This document shows positions 1 through 56,676 of a stretch of DNA of 64,000 nt, piece after piece (within the stretch, counting starts at the first letter, position 1; each line of letters opens with the position of its first letter). A model generated the notes under the pieces. It ran no database searches. It was not told the DNA's origin and saw only the letters and a list, made by a program, of their open reading frames with translations. Made by a program: the position numbers and the translations under genes. This DNA is from a virus: positions 1-64,000 of the IMG/VR virus record IMGVR_UViG_3300009149_000020; one strand, 5' to 3'.

Positions 1-466
1 TAGACTGTTTAAAGCTGCTCAGATTGCTAAAGAAGTCAAAAAAGAATTAGCAACAACTATTTCGTTTAATTGCGTTTATGTTGATGAAAATAAACAGATG
101 GTTGTTAAGAGTGTTGATGCTATGTTGCTATCTGTGTATGCGCAGTATAAAGAATTATTCTTTAAAAGAATAGATGCCGAGTGTGATAAGATTAAAGACA
201 AGATTTCAGATTTAAAGTTAATAGCTGTAATAAGACCTGAGTTAAAAGACTACCTTACACTACCTAAAGCCTTTGATAAAATTCTGGATGAGCTTGCTGT
301 AAAAGTAAATAAAAATGTAGAAGATGTTAAAAGGGTTATGTCAAGCTATACAATTAAAACTCTATTGACCTGCAACACAGATATTACTCCATTAAAAGCA
401 CAATTAAAAACAGTTCAGGCACAAAAAACAGAAGCTGAGGTTTTAAAGCAATATGAAGGAATCTAA
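1..466 (+). CDS. hypothetical protein, 5'-truncated by window edge
   Basis: Frame is open from position 2 with no stop before ATG 98; ends LKQYEGI, overlapping the RBS of the next gene. Confidence 0.7.
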   Translation, partial: RLFKAAQIAKEVKKELATTISFNCVYVDENKQMVVKSVDAMLLSVYAQYKELFFKRIDAECDKIKDKISDLKLIAVIRPELKDYLTLPKAFDKILDELAVKVNKNVEDVKRVMSSYTIKTLLTCNTDITPLKAQLKTVQAQKTEAEVLKQYEGI

Positions 467-869
467 ACTTGATGTGAAGTTGCGTGAAGCTATTACGGAA
501 GGGTCCGTGCCTAAAGCAAAGTTTTTGTTGATGGCAGGAGCTAATCCTAATCTAACACTTCACGGGGAGGCTGCTCTCATACGTTTAACAAAAGCATCCT
601 ACCCTTTTAAAGAATGTATTAAGTTATTTATTGACATAGGAGCAGATGTGAATGCAACATCTGTACACACAAACAAAACAGCACTCATGCTTAGTGCCAT
701 TTATCCTTCATATCCTGATATAATGGAATGGTTACTAAAAGCAGGGGCTGATCCTACCTTGAAAGATAACAAAGGTCACGATGTAGTTCACTTCATATCA
801 TTACACAATACTGATAAACAGCAAAAACTAATGCTCAGCCTTTTAAAACAGTATGGAGGTGCAGGTTGA
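453..869 (+). CDS. ankyrin-repeat protein (short KFxxMxG family)
   Basis: GANPN, GADVN, KTALM, GADPTLKD ankyrin motifs; first repeat KFLLMAGA. Confidence 0.9.
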   Translation: MKESKLDVKLREAITEGSVPKAKFLLMAGANPNLTLHGEAALIRLTKASYPFKECIKLFIDIGADVNATSVHTNKTALMLSAIYPSYPDIMEWLLKAGADPTLKDNKGHDVVHFISLHNTDKQQKLMLSLLKQYGGAG

Positions 870-1168
870 ATGACCTTGACATAAAACTTGTTGAAGCTGT
901 TAGAACAAACAAGATTGACCAAGTTAAGTTTTACATCATGGCGGGAGCTAACATTAACTTTCAAGACAAAGAGCATGATGCACCTCTAATGTGGGCTGCT
1001 CATAATAACAATTACAAGATCACAAAGATGCTACTTGAAGCAGGAGCGAATGTACATGTTAGAACTCAAAGTGGTTATAGCGTTATCTTTTTTGTTCCTG
1101 CCTGGTGTCGTGAAGTGCGCAAGCTTTTAAAACAGTATGGTGCGGAGGTACATGGAGGTGCGTATTGA
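866..1168 (+). CDS. ankyrin-repeat protein (short KFxxMxG family)
   Basis: KFYIMAGANIN, PLMWAA, LLEAGANV. Confidence 0.9.
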   Translation: MNDLDIKLVEAVRTNKIDQVKFYIMAGANINFQDKEHDAPLMWAAHNNNYKITKMLLEAGANVHVRTQSGYSVIFFVPAWCREVRKLLKQYGAEVHGGAY

Positions 1169-1593
1169 CTGAAGCCGAGAAGAAACATTGTGAAAAAGAA
1201 TTACGCATTGCAATGTTTAGATCGATCAAAGCAGGGTCCTTACCTCGTGTAAAGTTTTACTTAATGTCGGGGGTAAGCGTAAAAAATCCACCAGGTGATG
1301 GGTATACTGCACTAAAGATTGCAATTCGTGAAAATCGTCTTGATATTGTGAAAGTATTGGTAGAAGCAGGTGCTGATATCAACTATAGAAACAAACTAGG
1401 TAATTGCATTTTATTTGATGCAGTCTGTGAACCAGAAATACTAAAATATTTTATTGACAAAGGAGCAGATATATCAGTGAGAAATTGTGCTGGTACGTGT
1501 GCTTTCACTATTGCACGTATGACTGGTTGTACAGAATCTCAAATGTTATTGATGAGCTATGCAAGGCAACAAGGTTATTTTTCAGGAGTGTGA
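1165..1593 (+). CDS. ankyrin-repeat protein (short KFxxMxG family)
   Basis: KFYLMSG, GYTALKIA, LVEAGADIN, GADIS; TTG start after GGAGG. Confidence 0.88.
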   Translation: MTEAEKKHCEKELRIAMFRSIKAGSLPRVKFYLMSGVSVKNPPGDGYTALKIAIRENRLDIVKVLVEAGADINYRNKLGNCILFDAVCEPEILKYFIDKGADISVRNCAGTCAFTIARMTGCTESQMLLMSYARQQGYFSGV

Positions 1594-1604
1594 AAGGAGT
1601 AAGA

Positions 1605-2687
1605 ATGGATTGTAAAATATTGTACTTGCCTAATAAGGCTAAGCCCTTTTCTAAACATGTGGAATCAAGTAATTACAATTTTGATTTCTTTTATAAGAGT
1701 GGTCTTTTTCTTAGGTGGGGAAAGACTGAAGACGATGACCCATCATATTCTCCATTCGGGCCTGAGATACTTGATATAGAGATATCAACTATCTGTAATG
1801 GTATTAATGGGAAGCCCTGTACACATTGCTATAAATCAAACACAGGCAAAGGAAAGAATATGTCTTTTGATACATTCAAAACTATCTTTGACAAAATGCC
1901 TGAAACATTGACTCAGGTAGCATTTGGTATTGGAGATATTGATGCAAATCCTGATATGTGGGAAATGTTTAAGTATTGTAGGAGTAATCAGAATACTGTA
2001 GTTGTGCCTAATGTAACTATAAATGGCTGGAATCTAACAGATGAGGCAGCAGATAACTTTTCTTCCTTATGTGGAGCTGTTGCTGTCTCAAGATACCAAC
2101 CTAAAGATGTATGTTATGATGCTGTACAAAAACTAACAGATAAAGGGATGACGCAGGTTAACATACATATGCTACTGTCACAGGAAACATTAGACCAGTG
2201 TTATGAAACAGTATATGATATGAAAATGGACGCTAGGCTACGAAGAGCAAATGCTGTAGTATTTTTGTATCTTAAGCCTAAAGGAATCAGAAATAAGTTT
2301 ACTATGCTACATGGTGCTAGTCATTATGAAAAACTTATTTCGTATTGTTTTAATAACAAGGTTAAGTTTGGGTTTGACTCTTGTTCAGCTCCTACATTTT
2401 TACGAGCAGTAGAACATAGGTCAAATTTTTCTGAACTTGAAATGATGGCAGAGTCCTGTGAAAGTTCTTGTTTCAGCAGCTATATTAATGTGGATGGACG
2501 ATACTTTCATTGTTCTTTTACAGAAGGGGAGCAAGGTTGGAAAGGAATTGACGTAGTCAACTGTAAAGACTTCTTAAAAGATGTATGGTATGGTGATGAG
2601 ACCATAAGATTTAGAGATAGTTTGATTACACAAAATCATGCAATTAGTAACTCATGCAGAGAATGTCCAATATTTGATTTACGGTGA
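1605..2687 (+). CDS. radical SAM enzyme with C-terminal SPASM/twitch-like Cys domain
   Basis: PEILDIEISTIC-x7-CTHCY cluster motif, PNVTING, CESSCFSSYINVDGRYFHCSF, CRECP; start moved to ATG 1605 after AAGGAG. Confidence 0.88.
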   Translation: MDCKILYLPNKAKPFSKHVESSNYNFDFFYKSGLFLRWGKTEDDDPSYSPFGPEILDIEISTICNGINGKPCTHCYKSNTGKGKNMSFDTFKTIFDKMPETLTQVAFGIGDIDANPDMWEMFKYCRSNQNTVVVPNVTINGWNLTDEAADNFSSLCGAVAVSRYQPKDVCYDAVQKLTDKGMTQVNIHMLLSQETLDQCYETVYDMKMDARLRRANAVVFLYLKPKGIRNKFTMLHGASHYEKLISYCFNNKVKFGFDSCSAPTFLRAVEHRSNFSELEMMAESCESSCFSSYINVDGRYFHCSFTEGEQGWKGIDVVNCKDFLKDVWYGDETIRFRDSLITQNHAISNSCRECPIFDLR

Positions 2688-2708
2688 ACTTTATTTTTAG
2701 GAGAATTT

Positions 2709-3098
2709 ATGAAGATTAGACACGGTTTTGTTAGCAATTCATCTTCGACTGCTTTTATTGTTTGTAGGAATGAGTTAACAAGAGCACAGGAAGATTTATT
2801 GTTAGGATGTACACCTGCATTAGAAGAAGGCTGGAAAATAGGTATTGTAAACGACCACATAATCGGTTATGTTGATATGGATAATTTTGAGATTGAAGAT
2901 GTTTTGTTAGTATTAGAAATACATAGTGCTCGTATTTGTAGCTACCCCGATTTTCTTGATTATGCAGGATTGGAGAAACTTGTTAGATTAGGAAAAGTTT
3001 CTGAGTTTAATGGTCTTTACGGAGTGTGGGACCCAAGCAATAACTTTATTGCAGAAAGGGTGCCTGGCAAGAAATCACGCAAGTCAGCAAAAAGGTGA
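2709..3098 (+). CDS. MKxRxGFVSNSSS-motif protein
   Basis: N-terminus MKIRHGFVSNSSSTAFIV; directly after the radical SAM gene. Confidence 0.8.
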   Translation: MKIRHGFVSNSSSTAFIVCRNELTRAQEDLLLGCTPALEEGWKIGIVNDHIIGYVDMDNFEIEDVLLVLEIHSARICSYPDFLDYAGLEKLVRLGKVSEFNGLYGVWDPSNNFIAERVPGKKSRKSAKR

Positions 3099-3112
3099 GC
3101 GTAGGAGGATTT

Positions 3113-3508
3113 ATGGAAAATGATCCGCATATACTTATACAAAGCATTGAAGAAGAAATAACTAATGAAATTCAGCAAGCATCTTTTGGCATATCACTAA
3201 TGCCAGATAACCAACTTAAGGAACTTGCTAAGGATATAGTTGCCGGTAGAGTATTTACAGATAGGCAGGTAAGAAAAAGTGATGTTAGCATGTTATCTAG
3301 TATCTTTATGGTATTAGTATTTATGCAAGGCAATACCTCTTTAGTTTTGTCTGATGCAGGGCTGCTTTATGAATATTTGGATAAGGCTGGCCCTAGATGT
3401 GTCAATGGCTACCCTACATTCATGTCAGTAAGATATGTTCATAAGCATGATATACCTAGACTCTTCGAGACATGTGATAAAGTGCAACAAGCACTAGCTT
3501 CTATTTAA
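3113..3508 (+). CDS. hypothetical protein
   Basis: ATG after AGGAGG; contains EYLDKAGPRCVNGYPTFMS. Confidence 0.7.
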   Translation: MENDPHILIQSIEEEITNEIQQASFGISLMPDNQLKELAKDIVAGRVFTDRQVRKSDVSMLSSIFMVLVFMQGNTSLVLSDAGLLYEYLDKAGPRCVNGYPTFMSVRYVHKHDIPRLFETCDKVQQALASI

Positions 3509-3518
3509 GGAGGAACTA

Positions 3519-4067
3519 ATGAAAGTTAGACGAGGCTTTGTTAGCAATTCCAGTTCAAGCAGTTTTATAATGGCCTTCTCTGAGAAGATACCTGAAACTG
3601 TTGAGGAATTACATTCAATATTATTTTGGGACAATGTAACAGGAGTTATTACTTCTACCTATTCAGAGTCAGTTGTTAGCACACACTTGCTTGCTACACG
3701 TATTTTTGAGAAAATTAAGAAAGAAGGTACATCTAACAAAGCAGAGATTATTGAAAAACTTGCATGGTCTGATCAAACTCGCGCACTACAAGCGGAGTAC
3801 TTTGCTTTACATGAAAATTATAAAGATGATACAAAGGCTTATAAACAAGCACAGTCTTTGTTAGATCAGCAAATGACTGAAGCAGCTGAAAGAATTTATA
3901 AGTATGTTTTATGTAAAGGCAGTGGGTATGATCACGTTCCTCCCTCAAACGTTGTAATGGTTGAATTCGAAGACAATGGTCTTTCCATAGATGCTATTAT
4001 TGAGCATAGCGCTATTATTAACGATGATGGTTATAGACTTACTGTTGTTACGGTTAATAATCATTAA
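3519..4067 (+). CDS. MKxRxGFVSNSSS-motif protein
   Basis: MKVRRGFVSNSSSSSFIM; C-terminal DAIIEH...VNNH. Confidence 0.82.
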   Translation: MKVRRGFVSNSSSSSFIMAFSEKIPETVEELHSILFWDNVTGVITSTYSESVVSTHLLATRIFEKIKKEGTSNKAEIIEKLAWSDQTRALQAEYFALHENYKDDTKAYKQAQSLLDQQMTEAAERIYKYVLCKGSGYDHVPPSNVVMVEFEDNGLSIDAIIEHSAIINDDGYRLTVVTVNNH

Positions 4068-4076
4068 GGAGTATTT

Positions 4077-4895
4077 ATGTCTAAATTGGTGAAATTTAAA
4101 ACAGGTGTAACATCCTACGAAATAAACAAAAAGTCTGATCCAGCCTTGTCCATTCTTCATCATATTAGTACAGGTTGGAAGAATTATACTGGCGATAGTA
4201 CTACTTCTACGCTTGTTACAAAGTTTTATATAGCAATGGCTCCTACTCCTGATATAACTTTGTTAGACGAGCAAGCAGATCGCTACTTGTACTATCGTAG
4301 AGGTAAATGGTCTGATCCAGCGGCTGCACACGACCCAGAATCATTAATCAGACAGACCTACCATACGTTATTAGGAGTGGCTACGCAAAATGTTAAACTG
4401 GATGCTGACCAAACTATTAGATATTTATATTATGAAAAGACACATGATCCAGATGCCAAAAAAGATATTGACCAAACTATAAGGTATAGATACTATGAGC
4501 TTTATCCTACCGATCCTGCTGCTAAAGACGATAGTCTTATGCATGCAAGACTCAACTACTATAGAAGTACACTATGGAAAGATAGTGACTGGTGTAAGGA
4601 TAAGACATTGCAAGTAGTTATTTCTGGATTGTATGAATCTTTAGAATTGCAGGTAGACGAAGAGGTGCTCAATGCTTTATTTACAACAGTAGGAGGAATG
4701 GACTTATACAACTTTAGTTATCACACCTTTTTCGTGTTTAAGGATGCTATCATTATCGAAAGACTTGCACAGTTAGTAAAAGAAGTAACTCCCGGGTTAT
4801 TCGGAAGGATGCTTTTAAATATTAAAGATTCTAACAAGAGACAAAAGTTTATGGAGTTTATGAAAAATCTTGGAGTAGTGGAGGAGCCGTGTTAA
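4077..4895 (+). CDS. 23-aa RxxYY/WxD repeat protein with shared C-terminal motif
   Basis: DQTIRYLYY, DQTIRYRYY, WKDSDWCKD; ends TPGLFGRMLLNIKDSNKRQKFM. Confidence 0.75.
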   Translation: MSKLVKFKTGVTSYEINKKSDPALSILHHISTGWKNYTGDSTTSTLVTKFYIAMAPTPDITLLDEQADRYLYYRRGKWSDPAAAHDPESLIRQTYHTLLGVATQNVKLDADQTIRYLYYEKTHDPDAKKDIDQTIRYRYYELYPTDPAAKDDSLMHARLNYYRSTLWKDSDWCKDKTLQVVISGLYESLELQVDEEVLNALFTTVGGMDLYNFSYHTFFVFKDAIIIERLAQLVKEVTPGLFGRMLLNIKDSNKRQKFMEFMKNLGVVEEPC

Positions 4896-6565
4896 AATAT
4901 ATTAGTTCAAAGCAACTTACTCGAACTTGTTCTACAGTAAAAGTTGAATTAACTTTTCATAGCAAGAAAGATTCATTATCGGATGCATGGTATGAATTTC
5001 AAAAGAATAATTTTATCAAAAAGCGAGTAGACCTTGTAGCTACGAAATTGGATGTTCACTACGAGGACATAGTTATTAATGGAGAGGATGACGTTAATGA
5101 TGTAGTAACTGTTATTTTTCATGTGTATGACTTTCCATCCGGCTTTTATGTTGATACGGATAATGTGCTCATTAATAGTCGAAATATAATTACATCCATT
5201 TCATTTGTGGTAAAGGCACTTCTTCCTATTGAGGAAGGTGAGGAAGGTGGAGCAACTTTAAGTGATGCAGAAATAGATCAGAAAGCTCTTGGTTTGTTGT
5301 TGAGAGGTAAATCAGGAGAAACGCAGGCAATCACTTTATTTTGTTTAGGTAAAACAGTCAAGGATCTTCCTAAAGAAATGAGGTCAGACATTGATTATTG
5401 TCTTCCTAACAAGTACAAGGAAGTTGTCGGGAACTCTGCTAGCAATAGTTACGGTAAACAGTTAAGTGCTATTCGTGCTAAGTTTGTAGATGTTTTGGAT
5501 AAACGCACGTTGTGGGAAAAGGAGAAGAAAGAACCTAAAGACATTTTTGTTGAACCAGATTATTCAGCATCCTTACTTACTATATCTTTCTTGCTTACTA
5601 AAGATTCTTTATCCAAAAGTGAGCTAAGTTATCTAGGACAGATACTAAGTAAGTCCACAAAAGTAGACTACTATAGAGTCTTTATAGTGCATTCACAAAT
5701 ATTTAAAGTTATTGTTCAATATAGCGTGTATGAAGACCCTGACCTTTTAGCACAGTTTTTATGTTGTAAAGAAGTGTTTGATTACTGCATTAAACAAGGA
5801 CATGCTGGCCTTAATACAGCTGTTCTTGCACACCCTTCTCTTATGGCCAAGAAGACTAACATTTACAATGTTCTTGTTAGAAAATCTTGCTTTGTAGACT
5901 TAGACTACAGTACTTGTATTTCTATGTTAGAAGGCTTAATAACTGAGGAGACTTTTCTTGATACAGAAAGTGTAAAAAAAGTTTTTAGACTTTTTGCGCA
6001 GGTGATGTGGCCTAGTGAATATGAAGTAATATATCGTAAAGCACCTGAGTTACTGTTTATGTTCATTTGTGATAGAGTATCAAAAGGGGATTTTTCTTTT
6101 TGCAATGAGTTGACAGTTTCTCTTGTAGAAGATGCTTATGGTGCAGATCTTCACTCGCTTACTGATAGGAAGTCAAAGTTAATGACCCAGTCATTCCAAG
6201 AACAGGGTATGCTTTATCTAAGCTATCTTCTTGCAGCATGTCTTGACGATAGTAATCAAAAGCATATAGAAAATAATCAAGTTCTTACCGCATTGGGTAA
6301 CGTGCTTACTGATGCTACGAATTTGTACGATTGTTTTGCTATCTCTTGTGTTTTTGGGAAAATTGTACAAAACATGTTACACATCAGTGAACACTTTTTC
6401 CAGGCTTTAGTTTTAAGAAAACCTGAGTTACTGGAAGTTTATAAAACAACGGATGTAAGGGCTGACTTACGTGATAGAAGCTCGTGTGCAGATATTATAT
6501 TCAAGCTTGCTGAAAGAAAGAAGTTGGTAGCAGTAGAGACTTCAGAGGAGGGCAATTGTGCTTAA
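4889..6565 (+). CDS. large hypothetical protein
   Basis: 558-aa ORF, GTG start after GGAGGAG; no family recognised. Confidence 0.75.
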   Translation: MLKYISSKQLTRTCSTVKVELTFHSKKDSLSDAWYEFQKNNFIKKRVDLVATKLDVHYEDIVINGEDDVNDVVTVIFHVYDFPSGFYVDTDNVLINSRNIITSISFVVKALLPIEEGEEGGATLSDAEIDQKALGLLLRGKSGETQAITLFCLGKTVKDLPKEMRSDIDYCLPNKYKEVVGNSASNSYGKQLSAIRAKFVDVLDKRTLWEKEKKEPKDIFVEPDYSASLLTISFLLTKDSLSKSELSYLGQILSKSTKVDYYRVFIVHSQIFKVIVQYSVYEDPDLLAQFLCCKEVFDYCIKQGHAGLNTAVLAHPSLMAKKTNIYNVLVRKSCFVDLDYSTCISMLEGLITEETFLDTESVKKVFRLFAQVMWPSEYEVIYRKAPELLFMFICDRVSKGDFSFCNELTVSLVEDAYGADLHSLTDRKSKLMTQSFQEQGMLYLSYLLAACLDDSNQKHIENNQVLTALGNVLTDATNLYDCFAISCVFGKIVQNMLHISEHFFQALVLRKPELLEVYKTTDVRADLRDRSSCADIIFKLAERKKLVAVETSEEGNCA

Positions 6566-8015
6566 GATCAAAGGAATAATTCAAAACCCCGTAGAAGCTT
6601 GGTGGATTAACTTTATGAACGAATTATTGGAGTCTAAGCTTCTTTCCCCTAAAGTAGTATTTAATGAGATAAGTGTACCTATTGTAAAGCTTGAAATACT
6701 TAATAACATTATTCTAATCATAACTGTTCCAGAAACAGAAGGGATGGCCGATCTTTATTATCCATTGTTTGTTCTTTCCATGGAGGACGGAGGAGAATTA
6801 AAATCAGTTGAAATTTTAGGTAACTTTCCTCTTATGCGTAAAGGAGAAGATGCGCCTGCAGACTTTATGTTAGATACAAGACGTGACGTGTTTCTTGCTA
6901 CAGGGGCTACTATAGCACGTAGCCATGAAAACCGGAGTATGAAAAAGGGAGTATCGCTGAGCACGTTCCTTCTTGCAAAAGATGCAAAGCTTTCGGGTGC
7001 AGCAGAGGAGTTCTGTACCTATTTTGGCAATCAGGTAACTTATAGTGATAGACGTCATATATTTCCTGCTCTTCATGCAATAGCTCCTATACTTCTTGCA
7101 AGAAAAGATAAGGAAAATACGAGTAAACATTTAATAGCTTTCTGCCTAAGAGCTACTGAACAATTAAGTTACTATGCTCCTTTGGCAGATTACCAGTCGC
7201 ACGTATGGGAGTTTGTTTACTACTTATACAAGCAACTAGGCGAGCCTATTGAAATGTATCCATATTTAGTAGCACATCCTATGTTTAAGTCAATTATTGA
7301 AAAGAGATCGACAGAATTAGACTTCTTTTCTTACTGTGACAAGGCTTGGCGTCAGATTGAAATAGACTATCAGGAACATCTCTTTTTTGCAGACGGGTTG
7401 GAAAGCTTAACACCGTTTGTAAGTGAGTCGTGCAGGCTGTATCCTTTTAAGTTGTTCTGGGGAGAAGCACAGAGGTATAGCCTTGATAATAGACAAGATA
7501 TGGACAATAAGGTTTCTCCTACAGACGATTATCACACAATGTTGAGTATTTATGTAAACGAGTTACTTAAAGCAACCGTTACAGTTGAAAAGTTAGAATC
7601 ACTAGCGCCACTATATCCTTATATGCTTGACAAAAAGTTAGAAACACTGGCACCTTTTTCTTCCATGCTAGTTAAGTTATTCTTAGGCGAAGTAGACGAA
7701 TTAACAAATGAGGAGGTTGCTGAATTTTCTAGGATGGCAGGAGAGGGTACAACAATTGAAAGTCTTAAACCGAGTCAATTAATTGTTACAGGCTTATTCT
7801 CTCAGAATACAGAAAGGTTAGGTTTATTTCTTTTCAGAACAACGAATACTCCTTTAAAGAAAATGTTAACGTTGTTGATGAAGAGAAAACAAAACTATAC
7901 GAAGAAGTTAGTTGACTGCAGACAGCAAGTTATTAAACAAGTTGAAAAAGCAAAAGCAGCTCAACAAAAGAAAATAAGTGAGGTTTACTGCGAAAAAGAA
8001 GTAGCAAACGTTTAA
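6558..8015 (+). CDS. hypothetical protein with shared C-terminal motif
   Basis: 485-aa ORF; NTERLGLFLFRTTNTPLKKMLTLLM near the C-terminus. Confidence 0.75.
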   Translation: MLKIKGIIQNPVEAWWINFMNELLESKLLSPKVVFNEISVPIVKLEILNNIILIITVPETEGMADLYYPLFVLSMEDGGELKSVEILGNFPLMRKGEDAPADFMLDTRRDVFLATGATIARSHENRSMKKGVSLSTFLLAKDAKLSGAAEEFCTYFGNQVTYSDRRHIFPALHAIAPILLARKDKENTSKHLIAFCLRATEQLSYYAPLADYQSHVWEFVYYLYKQLGEPIEMYPYLVAHPMFKSIIEKRSTELDFFSYCDKAWRQIEIDYQEHLFFADGLESLTPFVSESCRLYPFKLFWGEAQRYSLDNRQDMDNKVSPTDDYHTMLSIYVNELLKATVTVEKLESLAPLYPYMLDKKLETLAPFSSMLVKLFLGEVDELTNEEVAEFSRMAGEGTTIESLKPSQLIVTGLFSQNTERLGLFLFRTTNTPLKKMLTLLMKRKQNYTKKLVDCRQQVIKQVEKAKAAQQKKISEVYCEKEVANV

Positions 8016-9006: not shown

Positions 9007-9489
9007 ATGTATTACCCCTACGGGCTAACATTACCTATAGAATTTGTACCTTATCAAGAAAAAATTAATGCAATTATTAATAAATATGTAACTGGTGATT
9101 TTATACATAGTGGCCGTGAAGAAGCACTTTTTAACATGGCTGCAAAGGCTCCATTAAATACAGACTTCGTTGAGAAAGAGGATAGTTTTGCTTTTGGTGT
9201 AGCTTGTACAAGATGTACACCTTTTGAAAAAGTGACTGAGCCTGAAGAACGGATTTTCTCTTTACTTGCAGAGATTCATTGTCTAAATGTTGAAATGGCT
9301 GACCATAGTCTGAATGCAATTAGAAGAGAAGCAACACGTGAAACAGTAGTACCGTTCTTTAGTTTAAATAAAGTTGTAACCATGTTTGATAGTGCTTACT
9401 TAGGTATGAAGAGAAGTAAGTTAGAAGCAAGACGCACAAAGCTTCTAACAATATTGAAAAAAGAAATACGTCAACTAAGTAATGTTTAG
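9007..9489 (+). CDS. hypothetical protein
   Basis: ATG 9007 after AAGGAGG; the track's upstream extension runs through the terminator. Confidence 0.7.
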   Translation: MYYPYGLTLPIEFVPYQEKINAIINKYVTGDFIHSGREEALFNMAAKAPLNTDFVEKEDSFAFGVACTRCTPFEKVTEPEERIFSLLAEIHCLNVEMADHSLNAIRREATRETVVPFFSLNKVVTMFDSAYLGMKRSKLEARRTKLLTILKKEIRQLSNV

Positions 9490-9533
9490 AGTTTTTATTA
9501 AATGTAAAACTTCTAGTTTTACCCTCTCTTTAT

Positions 9534-9565
9534 AAGGATAGCTCTAATCAGCTATCCTTTTTTTT
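9534..9565 (+). terminator. intrinsic terminator-like hairpin
   Basis: AAGGATAGCT...AGCTATCCTT followed by a T run. Confidence 0.75.
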
Positions 9566-9592
9566 ATGCAAAAAATGTAAGGGGTGATGTGA

Positions 9593-10450
9593 ATGGCTTA
9601 TGAAAAAAGTAACAGTCAATTAAGTACTCAGGCAGATGCGCTATCTCGGTTGTTGGGACGAAGTCAACCATGCGTAATGGAGGTAAATCACCTTCTAACA
9701 TCTAGTGAACAAAAATGGATACCTACAGCTTTATTATTTAAGACTATGTTCGATTCTGGTCTTAGTATAAATGAAGCGTTACTTAATGACATGAAAGCAG
9801 GCTGTACACTGGAACGTATGCTATATGCGTTAGCTACTAGTGATCCTATTTGTAAAAAAGACAAATCATTAAAAGTTAAATTCTGTTATCATTTGTCTAT
9901 TGATTTTGTTGATCCCGACGTTTTAAAAACTAAGAGTGTGGTAATTGAAAGGTTAGCCTTAAGAAGAAAACCTGGACTAAGAGATCAAGTTTCAATTTAT
10001 GCTTTAAGCGATGATCGTAGAAGGGCTTATTACAATGAGAAGGGCTGGGCTGAAGCTAAAATGGACCCTAACTACTCGTTTAGAAGATTGTACTATGACT
10101 CTGTAAAATGGAAGGATTACGATTGGTACTGTGATAGAGAAATGGATTTGATAAAAGAAGGCATAACGTTGTGCCCTTCTTTTGTAAATACGGAAGGTTT
10201 GCAAAGGTTTGCGCTTAAGTTAACTACTAATAAAACAGGCATGGAGAAACTATTTTATACACTTTATTGGGCTACCAAGCATTCTCAGGCACGTTGGCAA
10301 GAAATCAAACCGCAGTTTATCAAGTTTTTCTCATTGTTGTCCCCTGCGCAAAATACTGCAATAATGTTCAGTACAAAAAAAGAATACATAAGAGAGTTCT
10401 TTAAGGAAGTGCTTGTTAAGCAAGAAATGTCAGAAGGAGGCTTGAAATGA
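9593..10450 (+). CDS. RxxYY/WxD repeat protein with shared C-terminal motif (paralog of 10771)
   Basis: ERMLYALAT, VKFCY, RRLYYDSVKWKDYDWYCD; SPAQNTAIMFSTKKEYIREFF. Confidence 0.8.
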   Translation: MAYEKSNSQLSTQADALSRLLGRSQPCVMEVNHLLTSSEQKWIPTALLFKTMFDSGLSINEALLNDMKAGCTLERMLYALATSDPICKKDKSLKVKFCYHLSIDFVDPDVLKTKSVVIERLALRRKPGLRDQVSIYALSDDRRRAYYNEKGWAEAKMDPNYSFRRLYYDSVKWKDYDWYCDREMDLIKEGITLCPSFVNTEGLQRFALKLTTNKTGMEKLFYTLYWATKHSQARWQEIKPQFIKFFSLLSPAQNTAIMFSTKKEYIREFFKEVLVKQEMSEGGLK

Positions 10451-10626
10451 TTTATCGTGTCAAATATTGGCGGCAGGTTAATCCTGAGTTCGGCGAGTGG
10501 GTACATACTGGTTTGATGAAAAAAGAGCATGCAGAACAGTTGGCAGAGGATCTGTGTAACCGGCATGAGAAAGTCGAAGTTATTATTGATGAATCAGAAA
10601 AGTACAAGAATGTTAAACAACGTTAA
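10447..10626 (+). CDS. small hypothetical protein (59 aa, not in ORF track)
   Basis: AAGGAGG RBS, ATGA overlap; MIYRVKYWRQ... Confidence 0.6.
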   Translation: MIYRVKYWRQVNPEFGEWVHTGLMKKEHAEQLAEDLCNRHEKVEVIIDESEKYKNVKQR

Positions 10627-43699: not shown

Positions 43700-44083
43700 G
43701 TGCTTAGTGAAGAGAAGATGAAAGAGTATCAAAAAGAATGGTATCAGAAAAACAAAGAAAAGATAAAAGAAAAGCATAAAGAATACCGTCAGAAAAACAA
43801 AGAAAAGATAAAAGAAAAGCATAAAGAATACCGTCAGGAAAACAAAGAAAAGATAAAAGAATACTATCAGGAAAATAAAGAGAAGCTACAAGAGTATCAA
43901 AAAGAGTACTATCAGGAAAATAAAGAGAAGCGGAAAGCATATTTACAGGAAAATAAAGAGAAGATACAAGAGTATCAAAAAGAGTATCAAAAAGAGTATC
44001 AAAAAGAGTATCAAAAAGAGTATCGTATCAAAAATAAACAGAGAGCAAACGCACAGAAGATGAAGGAGAAAAGTAATGATTGA
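43700..44083 (+). CDS. low-complexity KEY[QR]/ENKEKI repeat protein
   Basis: 15-, 11- and 4-aa repeat units; GTG start after GAGGA. Confidence 0.7.
   Translation: MLSEEKMKEYQKEWYQKNKEKIKEKHKEYRQKNKEKIKEKHKEYRQENKEKIKEYYQENKEKLQEYQKEYYQENKEKRKAYLQENKEKIQEYQKEYQKEYQKEYQKEYRIKNKQRANAQKMKEKSND
43745..44024 (+). repeat. in-frame tandem repeats (45/33-bp units, then about 4.75 copies of AAGAGTATCAAA)
   Basis: Seen directly; 12-bp array at 43968-44024. Confidence 0.85.
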
Positions 44084-45554
44084 GATTAAAGGAAAGTACA
44101 CTGAAGCAATTGTACATATTGATGAGGTAGAAGAAAGCTGCATTGCGCAAATTCAGTCAATGTGCAATCATTCTGCATTTACAAACCCTATTAAAATCAT
44201 GCCTGATTGTCATGCAGGTAAAGGTTCTGTGATAGGCTTTACTATGCCGTTAGGAGACATGCTAATTGCTAATGTGGTCGGAGTTGACATAAACTGCGGA
44301 ATGCTGTCTATAAATGTAGGCCCTGACGCATTTACAAAGTTAACTTTTGTTGAAGTTGAGAAAAAGATAAGAGAAGCTATTCCATTCGGAATGTCAACAC
44401 ATACTCCAGAAGACGCTATTAATATGGAGAAAGAGTTTCCGTGGAAGAACGTTAATGAAGAAGTAAGAGAATTTCTAAGGGCATTTGAAAAGAAATTTGG
44501 CTTTACAGTGGCTCCTCCTGTTATTAATTATGAATGGTTCAGGGCTAAGTGTAAACAAATAAGCTGTGACCCTTCAAGAGCTATAAGAAGTCTCGGAACA
44601 CTTGGCTCGGGCAATCATTTCGTCGAAGTTGGAAAGGCTGAAACCACTAGAGACTACTGGGTTACAATCCATTCAGGTTCTAGAAACTTTGGTAAATGTA
44701 TTTGTGATTATTGGCAAGGAGTTGCTAAGAAAATGCTCGATGATAAAAGAAACGGTGCATATCAAGAGAGAGTGTTAACGCTTAGAAGTAACCACGAAGC
44801 TGCCGGTACACCTGAGTTAATTCCTCAAGGCATAAAGCAACTTCGAGAAGAGTTAGGCTTTCTTGGTATAACCAAAGGAATGGAAGCATTAGAAGGAACT
44901 GATATGCTTAGTTATTTGATAGACATGGTCTTTACACAGAAGTATGCTGATGTGAACAGACAAGTCATGGCTTTCAAAATTAAAGGTATCTTTAAGTGTG
45001 AAGAAAAAGACTCTATTCACACTAAACATAACTTTATAGACTTCAAGGATTTCATAATTCGTAAAGGAGCTATCAGAAGTTATGTAGATGAAAGAATGAT
45101 TATTCCTTTTAACATGCGTGATGGTATTTTAATCTGTGAAGGCAAATCTAATACTGACTGGAACTTTTCAGCTCCTCATGGTGCAGGAAGAGTAATGAGC
45201 AGAGGAGATGCAAAAAGGAAACTTAACATGGAGCAGTTTACACATCAGATGAAAGGCATCTATACTACGTCTGTTTGTGAAAGCACATTAGACGAAGCTC
45301 CTAATGCTTATAAAAAGTCAGAGTTAATTGAAAGTTTGATAGGAGACACAGTTACAATTCTTGATAGGGTTAAACCAGTAATTTCTATGAAAGACAGAGG
45401 CTCTGCTCAAACTGCTATTGATAGAAAGAAAGCAAAAAGATCGTGGAAGAAAGAAAGAAGAGAAGCTGCAAGATACAAAATGCAGGAAGCAAACGCAACT
45501 GCAAACCTTCAGAATAACAGACATGGAGTAGATGAAGAAGGGAGGTTATTTTGA
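44076..45554 (+). CDS. rtcB: RtcB RNA ligase
   Basis: MPDCHAG, VGVDINCG, GTLGSGNHFVE, HSGSRNFG, HNFI, RKGA, SAPHGAGR, DEAP.AYK. Confidence 0.95.
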   Translation: MIEIKGKYTEAIVHIDEVEESCIAQIQSMCNHSAFTNPIKIMPDCHAGKGSVIGFTMPLGDMLIANVVGVDINCGMLSINVGPDAFTKLTFVEVEKKIREAIPFGMSTHTPEDAINMEKEFPWKNVNEEVREFLRAFEKKFGFTVAPPVINYEWFRAKCKQISCDPSRAIRSLGTLGSGNHFVEVGKAETTRDYWVTIHSGSRNFGKCICDYWQGVAKKMLDDKRNGAYQERVLTLRSNHEAAGTPELIPQGIKQLREELGFLGITKGMEALEGTDMLSYLIDMVFTQKYADVNRQVMAFKIKGIFKCEEKDSIHTKHNFIDFKDFIIRKGAIRSYVDERMIIPFNMRDGILICEGKSNTDWNFSAPHGAGRVMSRGDAKRKLNMEQFTHQMKGIYTTSVCESTLDEAPNAYKKSELIESLIGDTVTILDRVKPVISMKDRGSAQTAIDRKKAKRSWKKERREAARYKMQEANATANLQNNRHGVDEEGRLF

Positions 45555-52183: not shown

Positions 52184-53049
52184 GTAAAAAAGAAAAGCAA
52201 CCACAAGTAAAAGAATTAACAAAGGAACAGCAAGCATTGTTCTTTGATTTGCCTGCAAGTACAAAAAGTGCGTTTCTTAGAAGGATGATTTATAGTGCAC
52301 TTGGTAGAAAGGATATCATAGCACTTAAAGAACTTGCATCGTTAGCTGATACATTAGGGTCTAATGTTTTTACACACGCTTCCACTTTAAAAGAAATAGG
52401 ACTCAGAGCCTCTTATGAAACTATACGTTTTTTAATGGAGCATCCTTTTATACAAAAAAATATTAAGAAGGGTAACGCTTTTCCTTTATTAAAAGGAGTG
52501 TGTATTTCAAAGGATACTGAATCACTACATTATTTTGTTGATCACCCTGAACATCCTGTGACACAATTAATTAAGGAAGCAGGTGTAGGTAATCGTATGT
52601 TTGCAAGCTATAATGACGAGCACAGTCCTATAATTGTGGCAGCTAGAGAAAAAGATCTGCATCTTATCAAAAAAATTATTGCAATGTATCCTCCAAATTC
52701 TAGATTCTCTCTTGAAGAAAAAAGTACAATTGTTTTAGACTACTTACGTAGTGCACTCAGTCCTTTGTCAACTGGTCTCACTTCTAAAAAAAAGCAGCAA
52801 GTGAAATCGGAGTGTCTTCGTATTGTTGACGAGATACTTTCTACAATGCATATAGAATTTGAAGAAATTGTAGCCCCTAAATATCATCCACTTACACACT
52901 GGATGCTTCCTTTTGTAGGCGAATTTATTTTTAAAGAAAAGCATTTAGGTATGTTAGCAATGCGTAAAGATTGGCAAGGTGAGGTTGCTAGAGAGCTATT
53001 AGCTAAAAAAGAGGAGAAGACTAATGAAAATCAGAACAGGCTTTATTAG
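52180..53049 (+). CDS. helical hypothetical protein with shared C-terminal motif
   Basis: EIGLRASYETIRFL..LLKGV; KEKHLGMLAMRKDWQGEVARELL. Confidence 0.7.
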   Translation: MSKKEKQPQVKELTKEQQALFFDLPASTKSAFLRRMIYSALGRKDIIALKELASLADTLGSNVFTHASTLKEIGLRASYETIRFLMEHPFIQKNIKKGNAFPLLKGVCISKDTESLHYFVDHPEHPVTQLIKEAGVGNRMFASYNDEHSPIIVAAREKDLHLIKKIIAMYPPNSRFSLEEKSTIVLDYLRSALSPLSTGLTSKKKQQVKSECLRIVDEILSTMHIEFEEIVAPKYHPLTHWMLPFVGEFIFKEKHLGMLAMRKDWQGEVARELLAKKEEKTNENQNRLY

Positions 53050-53539
53050 TAACAGTTCGAGCAGTTCTTTCATTGTAGGAATAGGTATGCATCTATTAGA
53101 TGACATAAAAGATATGGAAAAATTAAAGTACATGCTTTGTGTAGAAGACTGGACAGAAGTTAATCCTTATAACGAGCCTGGAGAAGGTTTACCTATAGAC
53201 GAAGCTATTTCTATTTTACAAAATGACTTAGCGGAGGCTAAAGACGCAACTGAAGAAGAAATAATTGAATTATTATCGCGCAGTTACACATTGCAGTTGT
53301 ATGTTGCTGACAGTAATAACCTAGGTTTAGAGGATACACGAGAACAGCATGCTGCGCGCATTGCTAAAATACGCAAGGATTCTTTAGAGCTTGCTAAAAA
53401 CTATTGGAATAACTACAAGAAAGATAACACAAAGTATTTTATTCTTGACTATGCTGACGACGAAGATGCATGTATGGAACACGGCGGGTTACTTGAGCAA
53501 GGTGCAGGTGTTAGCTGTATTAGAATTTCGAATCATTAA
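53024..53539 (+). CDS. MKxRxGFISNSSS-motif protein
   Basis: MKIRTGFISNSSSSSFIV; C-terminal DACMEH...ISNH. Confidence 0.82.
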   Translation: MKIRTGFISNSSSSSFIVGIGMHLLDDIKDMEKLKYMLCVEDWTEVNPYNEPGEGLPIDEAISILQNDLAEAKDATEEEIIELLSRSYTLQLYVADSNNLGLEDTREQHAARIAKIRKDSLELAKNYWNNYKKDNTKYFILDYADDEDACMEHGGLLEQGAGVSCIRISNH

Positions 53540-55192: not shown

Positions 55193-55847
55193 AGTTCATA
55201 CTAGCTCTTATAAACTTGCTAAACTTGGAAATTTTTTATCATACTTCGATTGTCCTTTTCCTCCAAGAATAAGTGATGGCGCAACATTGTTAGGGGCCAT
55301 CCTCGAATTAATGAAAAGAGGGGCAACTGTTGAATTACCTGAAACATTTAAAACTTCTAAGGATTGGTGGGATAGAGCGGCTTATTGTTTAACAACAGGA
55401 AAGGAGCTTCCAAATGACACATCTAAGTTAGTGAGGTGCGCTTACTTAATGACTTGTCCTGAAGTAGAAGAAGCCAAGCATAATTCTTACGAAGTAATTA
55501 GAGCATTATACTATACAGCAAATAATTGGACAGACCCTGATTGGTTGTTGGATGACTCTGCTAAGATACGTAGACAAGGTGCTGTATTGAGCCCAAGCGT
55601 TGACTTTACCCAAGAGAGTGTAACAACAGCATATATCGCTTTACTTAATGATATTCTTCAAACTACACATGCTAAACGTTTAACTAGTAAAAATGACTTT
55701 AACATTTTACGAACATTACAAAAGCTGGAGAAAGCTATACTTTCGCGTTTACTACTTGAGAATGACAAAATTATACACCCACGTTTTAAAAAAGTTATTA
55801 AAGACATTCTTGACGAAGTACCAGTTGAAAAGATTTTTGGAGGGTAA
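55179..55847 (+). CDS. RxxYY/WxD repeat protein with shared C-terminal motif
   Basis: RALYYTANNWTDPDWLLD; EKAILSRLLLEND. Confidence 0.78.
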   Translation: METFKVHTSSYKLAKLGNFLSYFDCPFPPRISDGATLLGAILELMKRGATVELPETFKTSKDWWDRAAYCLTTGKELPNDTSKLVRCAYLMTCPEVEEAKHNSYEVIRALYYTANNWTDPDWLLDDSAKIRRQGAVLSPSVDFTQESVTTAYIALLNDILQTTHAKRLTSKNDFNILRTLQKLEKAILSRLLLENDKIIHPRFKKVIKDILDEVPVEKIFGG

Positions 55848-55851
55848 GCGT

Positions 55852-56676
55852 ATGGGATGGTTAACCGGAAAGGGTACCGAAGTAGAGAAAAAGGAAAAAA
55901 CAGAAGATGTGTTTGACTATAAGATTAAAAGAGATTCAGACAATTATGTTAACGTTAAACACTATAGGCAAAAGTATTCGCTTAATTATCGAGATAGGTT
56001 TGAGTATTATGCTAATGTAACGGACTGGAAGGACGAAGACGCAAGAGACGATCCTGCAGAAACAGTCAGACGTACTTACTATGATACGTGTGCTTGGAAG
56101 GATGCTTATGCAAAAAAAGATGAGTCTGTAACTATTAGATATACTTATTACAAAAATAATAAATGGAAGGACGCTGATGCAAAAAAAGATGAAAATGCAG
56201 ATATACGTATTTCCTACTATGATGCTCATAACTGGTCTGACTTTGATTGGTATACGGAGACAAACTTATCTGTTATAAACAAAGGTTTTAGCTCCTGCCA
56301 GTCATTCTTAATAAACGACGACTTTATACAATGCTTAGAACTAGTTCTTGTACAGCCACCACCTTATTCTCAGATCGCAGTATGGTTAGGCCCCTTTGAC
56401 CTATATTCTTTATTTAAACTAGTATCTAGGTTATCTGAAGCACTATGTTCTAGATTATTATTTGCTCAGTTGCAAGACGCAACTCGAGAGCTTATTGGAT
56501 TTTTTATGACAATTAAGAATGATGATAAAAAATTTGTACAGTTCTGGCAGATCATTATAGAAGCTAATGATGATCATCCATCTTTAAAGTGTACCTCACT
56601 AGCTACAGCTGTAGCAGAATGTACTGTCGCAGATTTAGAAGAGACGGAGGAAGTGATTGAAGAAACCGAAATATAG
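55852..56676 (+). CDS. 23-aa RxxYY/WxD repeat protein with shared C-terminal motif
   Basis: Four repeats (WKDEDARDD, WKDAYAKKD, WKDADAKKD, WSDFDWY); SEALCSRLLFAQLQDATRELI. Confidence 0.82.
   Translation: MGWLTGKGTEVEKKEKTEDVFDYKIKRDSDNYVNVKHYRQKYSLNYRDRFEYYANVTDWKDEDARDDPAETVRRTYYDTCAWKDAYAKKDESVTIRYTYYKNNKWKDADAKKDENADIRISYYDAHNWSDFDWYTETNLSVINKGFSSCQSFLINDDFIQCLELVLVQPPPYSQIAVWLGPFDLYSLFKLVSRLSEALCSRLLFAQLQDATRELIGFFMTIKNDDKKFVQFWQIIIEANDDHPSLKCTSLATAVAECTVADLEETEEVIEETEI

Follow-up and report, generated by a model that had tools for sequence, protein, structure and literature searches.

Why should a phage encode a radical S-adenosylmethionine (SAM) enzyme directly upstream of small proteins that begin with the same serine-rich segment, and is that segment the site at which the enzyme acts? 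The question is raised by a stretch of 64,000 nucleotides (nt), here called the window, which makes up the first 64 kb of the 82.8-kb IMG/VR virus record IMGVR_UViG_3300009149_000020 (estimated completeness 36%) and is a fragment of a large uncultured phage. A prediction made earlier for this DNA (the original prediction) took the conserved N terminus to be a recognition or modification site for the enzyme. The best explanation of the data now assembled, to which we give a probability of about 55%, is a two-part phage system with a role in phage-host conflict, in which the enzyme covalently alters the N-terminal tag of diverse client proteins. It is probably a protein-modification system hitherto undescribed; we found no paper describing the enzyme and its tag, and the motif strings are absent from the papers searched. 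The enzyme, the clients and the open reading frame (ORF) between the first two of them are as follows, with lengths in amino acids (aa).

1605..2687, plus strand: radical SAM enzyme, 360 aa, of the phrog_7293 family
2709..3098, plus strand: tagged client 1, 129 aa, starting 22 nt past the TGA stop of the enzyme gene and in the same frame
2709..2762, plus strand: N-terminal tag of client 1, MKIRHGFVSNSSSTAFIV
3095..3508, plus strand: untagged ORF between two tagged genes, 137 aa, with a 4-nt overlap with the client 1 stop
3519..4067, plus strand: tagged client 2, 182 aa, of the SDxDG/LEHG/C-terminal His family (phrog_7397 type, as in coliphage RB16)
3519..3572, plus strand: N-terminal tag of client 2, MKVRRGFVSNSSSSSFIM
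53024..53539, plus strand: tagged client 3, 171 aa, 50 kb from the enzyme and of the same family as client 2
53024..53077, plus strand: N-terminal tag of client 3, MKIRTGFISNSSSSSFIV

The radical SAM gene and the three tagged genes are thus all present as originally described, and the second tagged gene does lie two genes beyond the first, with the one untagged ORF (3095-3508) between them. All three tagged proteins begin MK[IV]RxGF[VI]SNSSS, within a fuller consensus MK[IV]RxGF[VI]SNSSS[ST]xF, which gives a serine-rich tag of 16-18 residues that starts at Met1; a motif search of the whole 82.8-kb record found exactly three. Each of the three ATG codons has an AGGAG-type Shine-Dalgarno sequence 5-8 nt upstream. 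In the public annotation, 3519 begins at Met18 (165 aa) and so loses the tag (3519-3569), and because the upstream ATG has a ribosome-binding site (AAGGAGG) this call is almost certainly too short. Tagged genes may be systematically mis-started in databases.

Over their first 18 codons the window copies share 13-14 residues, 6-10 of which are written with different codons, including AGY/TCN serine switches, and the bodies that follow are just 17-26% identical. Selection has therefore acted on the peptide and not on a DNA or RNA motif. The reversed motif gave no match in 49 viral records and none in 1.48 Mb of reversed sequence, so the tag matches are not due to chance. In loci that had been chosen for the enzyme, all of the motifs (318/318) start at residue 1, that is at the start codon, and the residues common to all clades of the family are K2, a basic residue at 4, an aromatic residue at 7, V or I at 8, N10, S11, S12 and a second aromatic residue at 16.

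The pairing of enzyme and tag was approached from both sides. Starting from the tag, a degenerate DNA pattern recovered at least 120 IMG/VR stretches, and parent records were tested for the enzyme in sets of 49 and 47. Among the matches listed, the enzyme family is present in 36 and 38 of these tag-selected viral records, respectively (74/96); where the record is at least 90% complete the enzyme is found every time (9/9 and 10/10, or 19/19), and all of the records that lack it are 40% complete or less. Starting from the enzyme, we chose 80 loci by enzyme similarity alone and sought tags within 10 kb. At least one was found in 74, giving 316 tags, all on the strand of the enzyme; the nearest tag lies less than 2 kb away in 60 loci and is on the very next gene in 16. 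Three of the six tagless loci have tags elsewhere or a variant of the tag, and the others are fragments. The pairing is thus obligate in both directions, and tags without the enzyme, the case that the original prediction had set against itself, did not occur among the near-complete records. Enzyme and tag are moreover the only gene pair conserved across the loci.

The number of tags per record ranges from 1 to 11 (49 viral records). A tblastn search of 50,697 reference phage records found relatives of the enzyme in 173, which make up the RB16/RB43/KP15/KP27 group. RB16 has two tagged genes ∼20 kb from its enzyme, and the position of client 3, 50 kb from the enzyme in the window, is therefore not unusual. 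In RB16 (64000-74000; locus L005) the tagged genes, at 2611-3078 and 6489-7001 of the locus, bracket a gene for a 739-aa protein (3921-6140) and one small gene. Judged by sequence, hundreds of phages have the enzyme-tag pair, as do bacterial operons of immune type, and among large phages it is widespread.

We then consider what kind of enzyme is paired with the tag. The window protein matches phrog_7293 over its full length (E 1.4e-94), and its Pfam scores lie just under the cut-off for Radical_SAM (PF04055; 27.3 bits, cut-off 29.5) and under that for SPASM (17.1 bits, cut-off 21.5). In radical SAM enzymes a cysteine triad, canonically CX3CX2C, binds the [4Fe-4S] cluster that cleaves SAM. Conserved cysteines were read from homologue alignments of 21 and 23 sequences, and the triad of the window enzyme is C64-x7-C72-x2-C75, in which C72 and C75 do not vary; every homologue has the first Cys, at a spacing that runs from the canonical CX3 in some, through the CX7 of the window, up to ∼CX17. 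An AlphaFold2 (AF2) model of the enzyme has a predicted local distance difference test score (pLDDT) of ∼90 and gives a Foldseek probability of 1.00 to many solved radical SAM enzymes. The triad and the partial TIM-barrel fold of the model place the protein in the radical SAM superfamily.

The best Foldseek matches in the PDB are SuiB, SkfB, TigE, anSME and CteB, with viperin, MoaA and PqqE ranking lower; for SuiB, SkfB, CteB and TigE the E values are 3e-9 to 1e-7 and the TM scores 0.5-0.59. A sequence search of the PDB returned nothing but insignificant matches for the enzyme and none for one client. In the C-terminal part, conserved cysteines are C260, a C285-x12-G298-x4-C303 hairpin, and C354, often followed by C357, a twitch-like set that would be enough for one auxiliary cluster. 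The full seven-Cys SPASM motif (CX9-15GX4C, CX2CX5CX3C, C) is absent, there being no CX2CX5CX3C block. An N-terminal extension of ∼50 residues is conserved and was modelled as four short strands, beta-rich and without helices. An NCBIfam scan of the enzyme gave weak matches to two "maturase" families and none to anSME, FxsB or XyeB, and neither Pfam nor NCBIfam detected a PqqD domain or RiPP recognition element (RRE) in it (RiPP, ribosomally synthesized and post-translationally modified peptide); a conserved third gene was not found across the loci either. In five viral records the radical SAM gene falls into two profile pieces, 0.1-1.4 kb apart or with stops between them (G455:31259-32996, G466:43222-44968, G494:32148-34590, G454:33936-35150 and G458:64484-65689), and these splits may be introns, homing-endonuclease insertions or pseudogenes.

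Radical SAM enzymes of the SPASM/twitch type are known to act on short peptides (RiPPs) or on one protein family (sulfatases). The structural neighbors SuiB (streptide), SkfB, CteB and TigE are the closest comparison for the window enzyme model: in SuiB-type systems, as here, one enzyme stands beside several substrates that share an N-terminal recognition segment and are otherwise different, and the auxiliary-cluster hairpin CX12GX4C is found in both. However, the "core" here is a whole protein of 80-580 residues rather than a short peptide, and the conserved segment, of 16-18 residues, runs from Met1 and is partly a core strand. The enzyme also differs from these maturases in having the beta-rich extension in place of a detectable RRE, in lacking the full 7-Cys SPASM, in its variable triad spacing (CX3 to ∼CX17) and in a sequence similarity to the solved enzymes that is insignificant. 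The anSME/AtsB enzymes, on which the original prediction had drawn, are of similar size (∼370 aa), are radical SAM SPASM proteins without an RRE and are among the top structural matches (4k36 and 4k39), and anSME modifies a Ser or Cys near the N terminus of a full-length protein. The analogy nevertheless fails on the substrate, as the tag lacks [CS]-x-[PA]-x-R, the motif that anSME targets, and anSME-type recognition was rejected for this reason. Moreover, the enzyme has no NCBIfam anSME match and conserves one auxiliary Cys set, and anSME serves sulfatases only, whereas dozens of families carry the tag here.

The pair is also found outside phages. In Lachnospiraceae, Clostridiales and other Firmicutes, enzymes of ∼30% identity are followed by one to five genes starting MKxRxDFVTNSSSSSF. 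Plasmids of Agrobacterium, Rhodobacter and Rhizobium carry enzyme relatives 31-33% identical, operonic in 4/4 cases examined, in the order SMEK_N-STAND nucleoside triphosphatase (NTPase), tagged protein of 131-133 aa (MK[IVL]KxDFVSNSSSTSF) and radical SAM gene; in three of the four, the STAND gene is followed by a small gene without a tag. The one STAND protein scanned, from Agrobacterium pAt2, matches the PADLOC Avs2 models (E 8e-27), and the bacterial enzyme relative has weak PADLOC matches to pVip (viperin). The 37 enzymes of a maximum-likelihood tree fall into three clades, all supported at 100/100, and these match the tag types: G6/S9 in phages, including the window; D6/S9 in the plasmids; and T9 in Firmicutes (D6/T9) together with some phages (G6/T9). 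Enzyme and tag therefore vary together, a pattern consistent with co-evolution but no proof of it, since related sequences share labels. Together with the linkage, this co-variation supports the view that enzyme and tag are specific functional partners.

The plasmid operons match the architecture of a published anti-phage system, the KpAvs2-Avap1-Avap2 operon of Klebsiella pneumoniae (Bechon et al. 2024), which encodes an Avs2 STAND protein, a radical SAM protein and a small protein (PMC11564622). There the radical SAM protein Avap1 is needed against some phages only, and the small Avap2, assigned to DUF6375 by HHpred, binds the STAND protein and is required for defence against SECphi18 (PMC11564622). 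The window differs in being of phage origin and without an adjacent STAND gene, an Avs2 neighbor being seen only in the plasmid relatives. By hmmscan, PF19902 (DUF6375) had no match in the tagged proteins scanned, the Avap2 assignment having used HHpred; neither was PF19902 found in five phage records, four bacterial genomes and 400 sampled genomes of the class of one gammaproteobacterial metagenome-assembled genome (MAG). The resemblance of Avap1 and Avap2 to an enzyme-tag pair is one of architecture.

What carries the tag is far more varied than the tag itself. The sampled loci hold 287 tagged ORFs (median, 131 aa), and tagged proteins run from a 24-residue ORF to 495-580 residues. With the first 20 residues removed, the sampled ORFs leave 241 distinct bodies, which BLAST sorts into 76 components, 52 of them singletons. 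The bodies are acidic (median isoelectric point 4.46, with 91% below 5.5), some have CxxC zinc-ribbon-like starts, and several families have recurrent C-terminal endings (ISxH, GGxY, GTRxC and GxGR[ND]G). The body of client 1 belongs to the largest component (component 0), which is phage-only and has 27 members in the sampled loci; in the Atlas its only matches are viral hypothetical clusters, and its own model is of low confidence. Client 2 falls in a 22-member component that ends ISxH, and client 3, a BLAST singleton, aligns end to end with that family. The D-x3-EH motif and the terminal NH noted earlier in clients 2 and 3 are real: in the 23-member alignment of this family there is no variation in most of the tag columns, in one Asp of SDxDG, in the Glu of LEHG or in the C-terminal His, and almost none in the LEHG His. 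Where clients match phrog_7397, the match covers only residues 1-19 to 1-38.

A profile of this family, tag included, was searched against 1.84 billion representative proteins and found 13,837 clusters (50% identity) at E≤0.001, 2,294 at E≤1e-10 and 681 at E≤1e-30; in the best 150 of the 13,837 matches the tag is at residue 1, save for a few in which the start codon is called too far upstream. Word-indexed homologue searches with clients 2 and 3 returned almost nothing beyond the query itself. The AF2 model of client 3 (pLDDT 89.8; predicted template modeling score 0.83) found no Foldseek match, and VIA-align gave only non-specific helical-hairpin matches (Z≤7.2). In this model the pLDDT of residues 1-9 is below 50, and the first core strand is made of residues 13-21. 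The tag head thus looks exposed in the model and could bind a partner, and its tail looks structural. Once trimmed of the tag, a bacterial client family of at least 301 clusters in diverse bacteria, which has no Pfam domain, is remotely related to one phage client family (hhalign probability 85%, E 6.5e-6).

Unusual clients were seen at both ends of the size range. One locus (L212:5783-5882, in IMGVR_UViG_3300004776_000040) has a 24-residue ORF, barely more than the tag, in frame after the radical SAM gene, which could be a minimal client or a truncated gene. At the other extreme, proteins of ∼495-580 aa from Firmicutes and Dehalococcoidales MAGs (L244:8975-10462, L249:∼9020-10456 and L250:∼2409-4150) carry the tag (MKIKxD[FY]VTNSSS, LKLRTGFVTNSSS) directly after the enzyme. 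An uncultured Firmicutes contig (L247:9140-9415) encodes, beside an enzyme relative, a variant tag, MKIIRDFITNSSE, that leads into an extended Cys/Asp repeat (DCDFDCDCDC...). Just upstream lies another radical SAM-like ORF, in which a CxxxCxxC motif is present; on its sequence, the tagged ORF resembles a RiPP-style precursor making use of this tag.

How, then, would the two parts work? The system would consist of a distinct twitch/SPASM-like radical SAM enzyme and of different small acidic clients that share one N-terminal tag. The enzyme would recognize the exposed head of the tag, and 5'-deoxyadenosyl radical chemistry would lead to a covalent change in or beside it, so that one enzyme would mature or mark many different effector proteins. 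Covalent modification is the leading reading because of the class of the enzyme and of structural neighbors that modify peptides. Candidate changes are a C-C or C-O cross-link at aromatic residue 7 (perhaps to Lys2, on the model of streptide), oxidation at a Ser beta-carbon, and epimerization. A sister version of the system stands beside Avs2-like STAND NTPases in bacteria, and a part in the conflict between phage and host is therefore probable for the phage clients.

Several other chemistries were considered and set aside. A glycyl-radical site (RVxG[FY]-like) was rejected on the ground that Gly6 is Asp in two of the three clades, a thioether of the sactipeptide or ranthipeptide kind within the tag on the ground that the tag has no Cys, and Asn10-Ser-Ser as an N-glycosylation sequon on the ground that no glycosyltransferase is linked. 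Radical SAM/SPASM genes beside fast-diverging small proteins with one conserved piece have been described in conflict systems (Kaur et al. 2020; PMC7159879). The tag can be compared with the FxSxx peptides of vWA-MoxR systems and with the radical SAM systems of FxsB and the three-residue cyclophanes (triceptides), in that it has an aromatic-x-Ser triplet (F7-V8-S9). However, the conserved piece in those systems is C-terminal and released by a peptidase (PMC7159879), whereas here it is N-terminal and no peptidase is linked. A cyclophane F7-x-S9 is further disfavored by the variant tag GWVGNSSS, in which residue 9 is a Gly with no beta-carbon for such a cross-link.

A number of observations weigh against covalent modification of the tag. 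The sampled records come from related phages and are not independent, and some clients lie 20-50 kb from the enzyme (client 3 and those of RB16). The second half of the tag (SSSF[IV][IV]) forms the first core beta-strand of the modeled client fold and would thus be partly structural. Neither a recognition domain (RRE) nor a known substrate motif was found. Docking of the tag into the enzyme, a test proposed with the original prediction, was modeled as a natural read-through, consisting of the enzyme, an 8-residue linker and the first 30 client residues, with an alignment that included similar in-frame read-throughs from three other loci; the enzyme folded well, the linker and tag had a pLDDT of ∼30, and no docking was seen, in what was a weak test given its short tether, lack of cofactors and unpaired alignment. 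We infer the physical recognition of the tag, its covalent modification with the attendant chemistry, and the biological role. The original view of the N terminus as the site of this enzyme accordingly fares differently in its two halves: a functional partnership is borne out by the linkage, the clade-matched variants and the peptide-modifying relatives, and modification stays a proposal.

The tag might instead be a docking or assembly signal, with the clients serving as adaptors, regulators or specificity subunits of an enzyme that acts on some other substrate (a nucleotide, a small molecule, an RNA or a host protein), and with either the enzyme or a shared third party as the docking partner. 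Co-occurrence and co-variation speak for partnership and not for catalysis on the tag, in KpAvs2 it is the small accessory protein that binds the STAND protein and the radical SAM protein is needed against some phages only (PMC11564622), and both the weak pVip matches of the bacterial enzyme relative and the failure of the tethered tag to enter the enzyme would fit such a scheme. We nevertheless consider it unlikely, as the closest structural relatives modify peptides, with viperins lower in rank, and docking does not obviously need a near-invariant Asn10-Ser11-Ser12 held strictly at its place from residue 1 across three deep clades. It is more doubtful again that there is no portable tag at all and that the clients are one fast-evolving superfamily with a slowly evolving N-terminal strand-loop-strand, the enzyme being co-inherited in an accessory cassette. 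The core strand at residues 13-21, the constant presence of the tag among the best 150 relatives of the client 2 and 3 family, the endings that recur in several families and the remote relation of the tag-trimmed phage and bacterial families (hhalign probability 85%) all point this way. However, bodies of 24 to ∼580 residues in 76 BLAST components, some with CxxC zinc-ribbon-like starts, are hard to fit into one superfamily; the tag is near-invariant while the bodies diverge beyond recognition, and co-inheritance leaves unexplained a pairing that holds at 20-50 kb and across phages, Firmicutes and Proteobacteria.

The internal proteins of phage T4, otherwise variable, share an N-terminal capsid-targeting sequence, and the strictly N-terminal tag that T4-like and jumbo phages have on numerous small proteins, acidic and variable, could likewise be a targeting signal, for capsid packaging, injection or secretion. 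This is very improbable, since it leaves the obligate radical SAM partner unexplained, and the tag also occurs in non-viral Avs2-like operons (alphaproteobacterial plasmids) and in Firmicutes genomes. Least probable of all is a self-processing site in the Ser run that yields a matured cofactor in small His-liganded metalloproteins, the other possibility raised in the original prediction. The client 2 and 3 family does conserve an Asp, a Glu-His and a C-terminal His, but these residues belong to only one body family, against at least 76 BLAST-unrelated bodies; moreover, self-processing, for which we found no support, needs no enzyme, and yet the enzyme is always present. Covalent modification of the tag by the enzyme thus remains the reading that we prefer. 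A bolder form of it, which we put forward only tentatively and hold to be rather doubtful, is that the enzyme marks a universal tag covalently, for example with a cross-link or an oxidized Ser, and so activates dozens of structurally unrelated effectors, that the same chemistry arms or regulates Avs2-type NLR sensors, and that the phage clients mimic or inhibit them.

The surroundings of the pair in the window have little in common with those of other loci. Nearly all window genes are on the plus strand (GC 36.7%), and those from 453 to 4067 are packed tightly in the order three ankyrin genes, radical SAM gene, client 1, untagged ORF and client 2. The untagged ORF (3095-3508) is probably co-transcribed with its tagged neighbors; it has no Pfam, PHROG or NCBIfam match, and tblastn found it in none of ∼260 related loci (0/∼260). 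By tblastn, none of 3095, 4077, 4889, the ankyrin genes and the genes around 53024 recurs in other enzyme-tag loci. The three successive ankyrin-repeat genes (138, 100 and 142 aa; 453-1593) stand directly upstream of the radical SAM gene, Pfam Ank matches were obtained for the first and third (the two scanned), and ankyrin genes are also near the enzyme in one other locus (L162). A promoter and terminator scan gave background level only. There is no STAND gene near the window cluster, and PADLOC had no match for window proteins.

The gene that follows client 2 (4077-4895) and one five genes past client 3 (55693-56676) are paralogues (BLASTP E 8e-14) built of repeated "..D..IRY.YY...W.D.DA" units, and their positions beside tagged genes suggest a duplicated module. 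The 4077-4895 copy, the only one scanned, has no family match, and it is absent from other enzyme-tag loci. Among ten large window ORFs scanned, the only named functions are an RtcB-type RNA ligase (44076-45554; phrog_1075, E 6e-117) and a phage DNA polymerase (59965-62409; phrog_17, E 5e-133).

The system is best described, from the sequences and models at hand, as a tag- or leader-guided form of radical SAM maturation that would act on whole proteins, with a sister form in bacterial Avs2-like operons. Many full-length proteins, unrelated to one another, appear to draw on one enzyme through a tag held strictly at the N terminus. The culturable carriers, coliphages RB16 and RB43 and Klebsiella phages KP15 and KP27, make the system directly testable. 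If confirmed, it would represent a new logic of post-translational modification and possibly supply a portable tag for protein engineering. If the proposed chemistry is true, this would be a new class of tag-directed radical modification, in which the substrates are folded proteins and the client clusters exceed 10,000, and the sister system would assign a function to the unexplained radical SAM accessory gene in an anti-phage operon already published and point to a role for the phage form in counter-defence.

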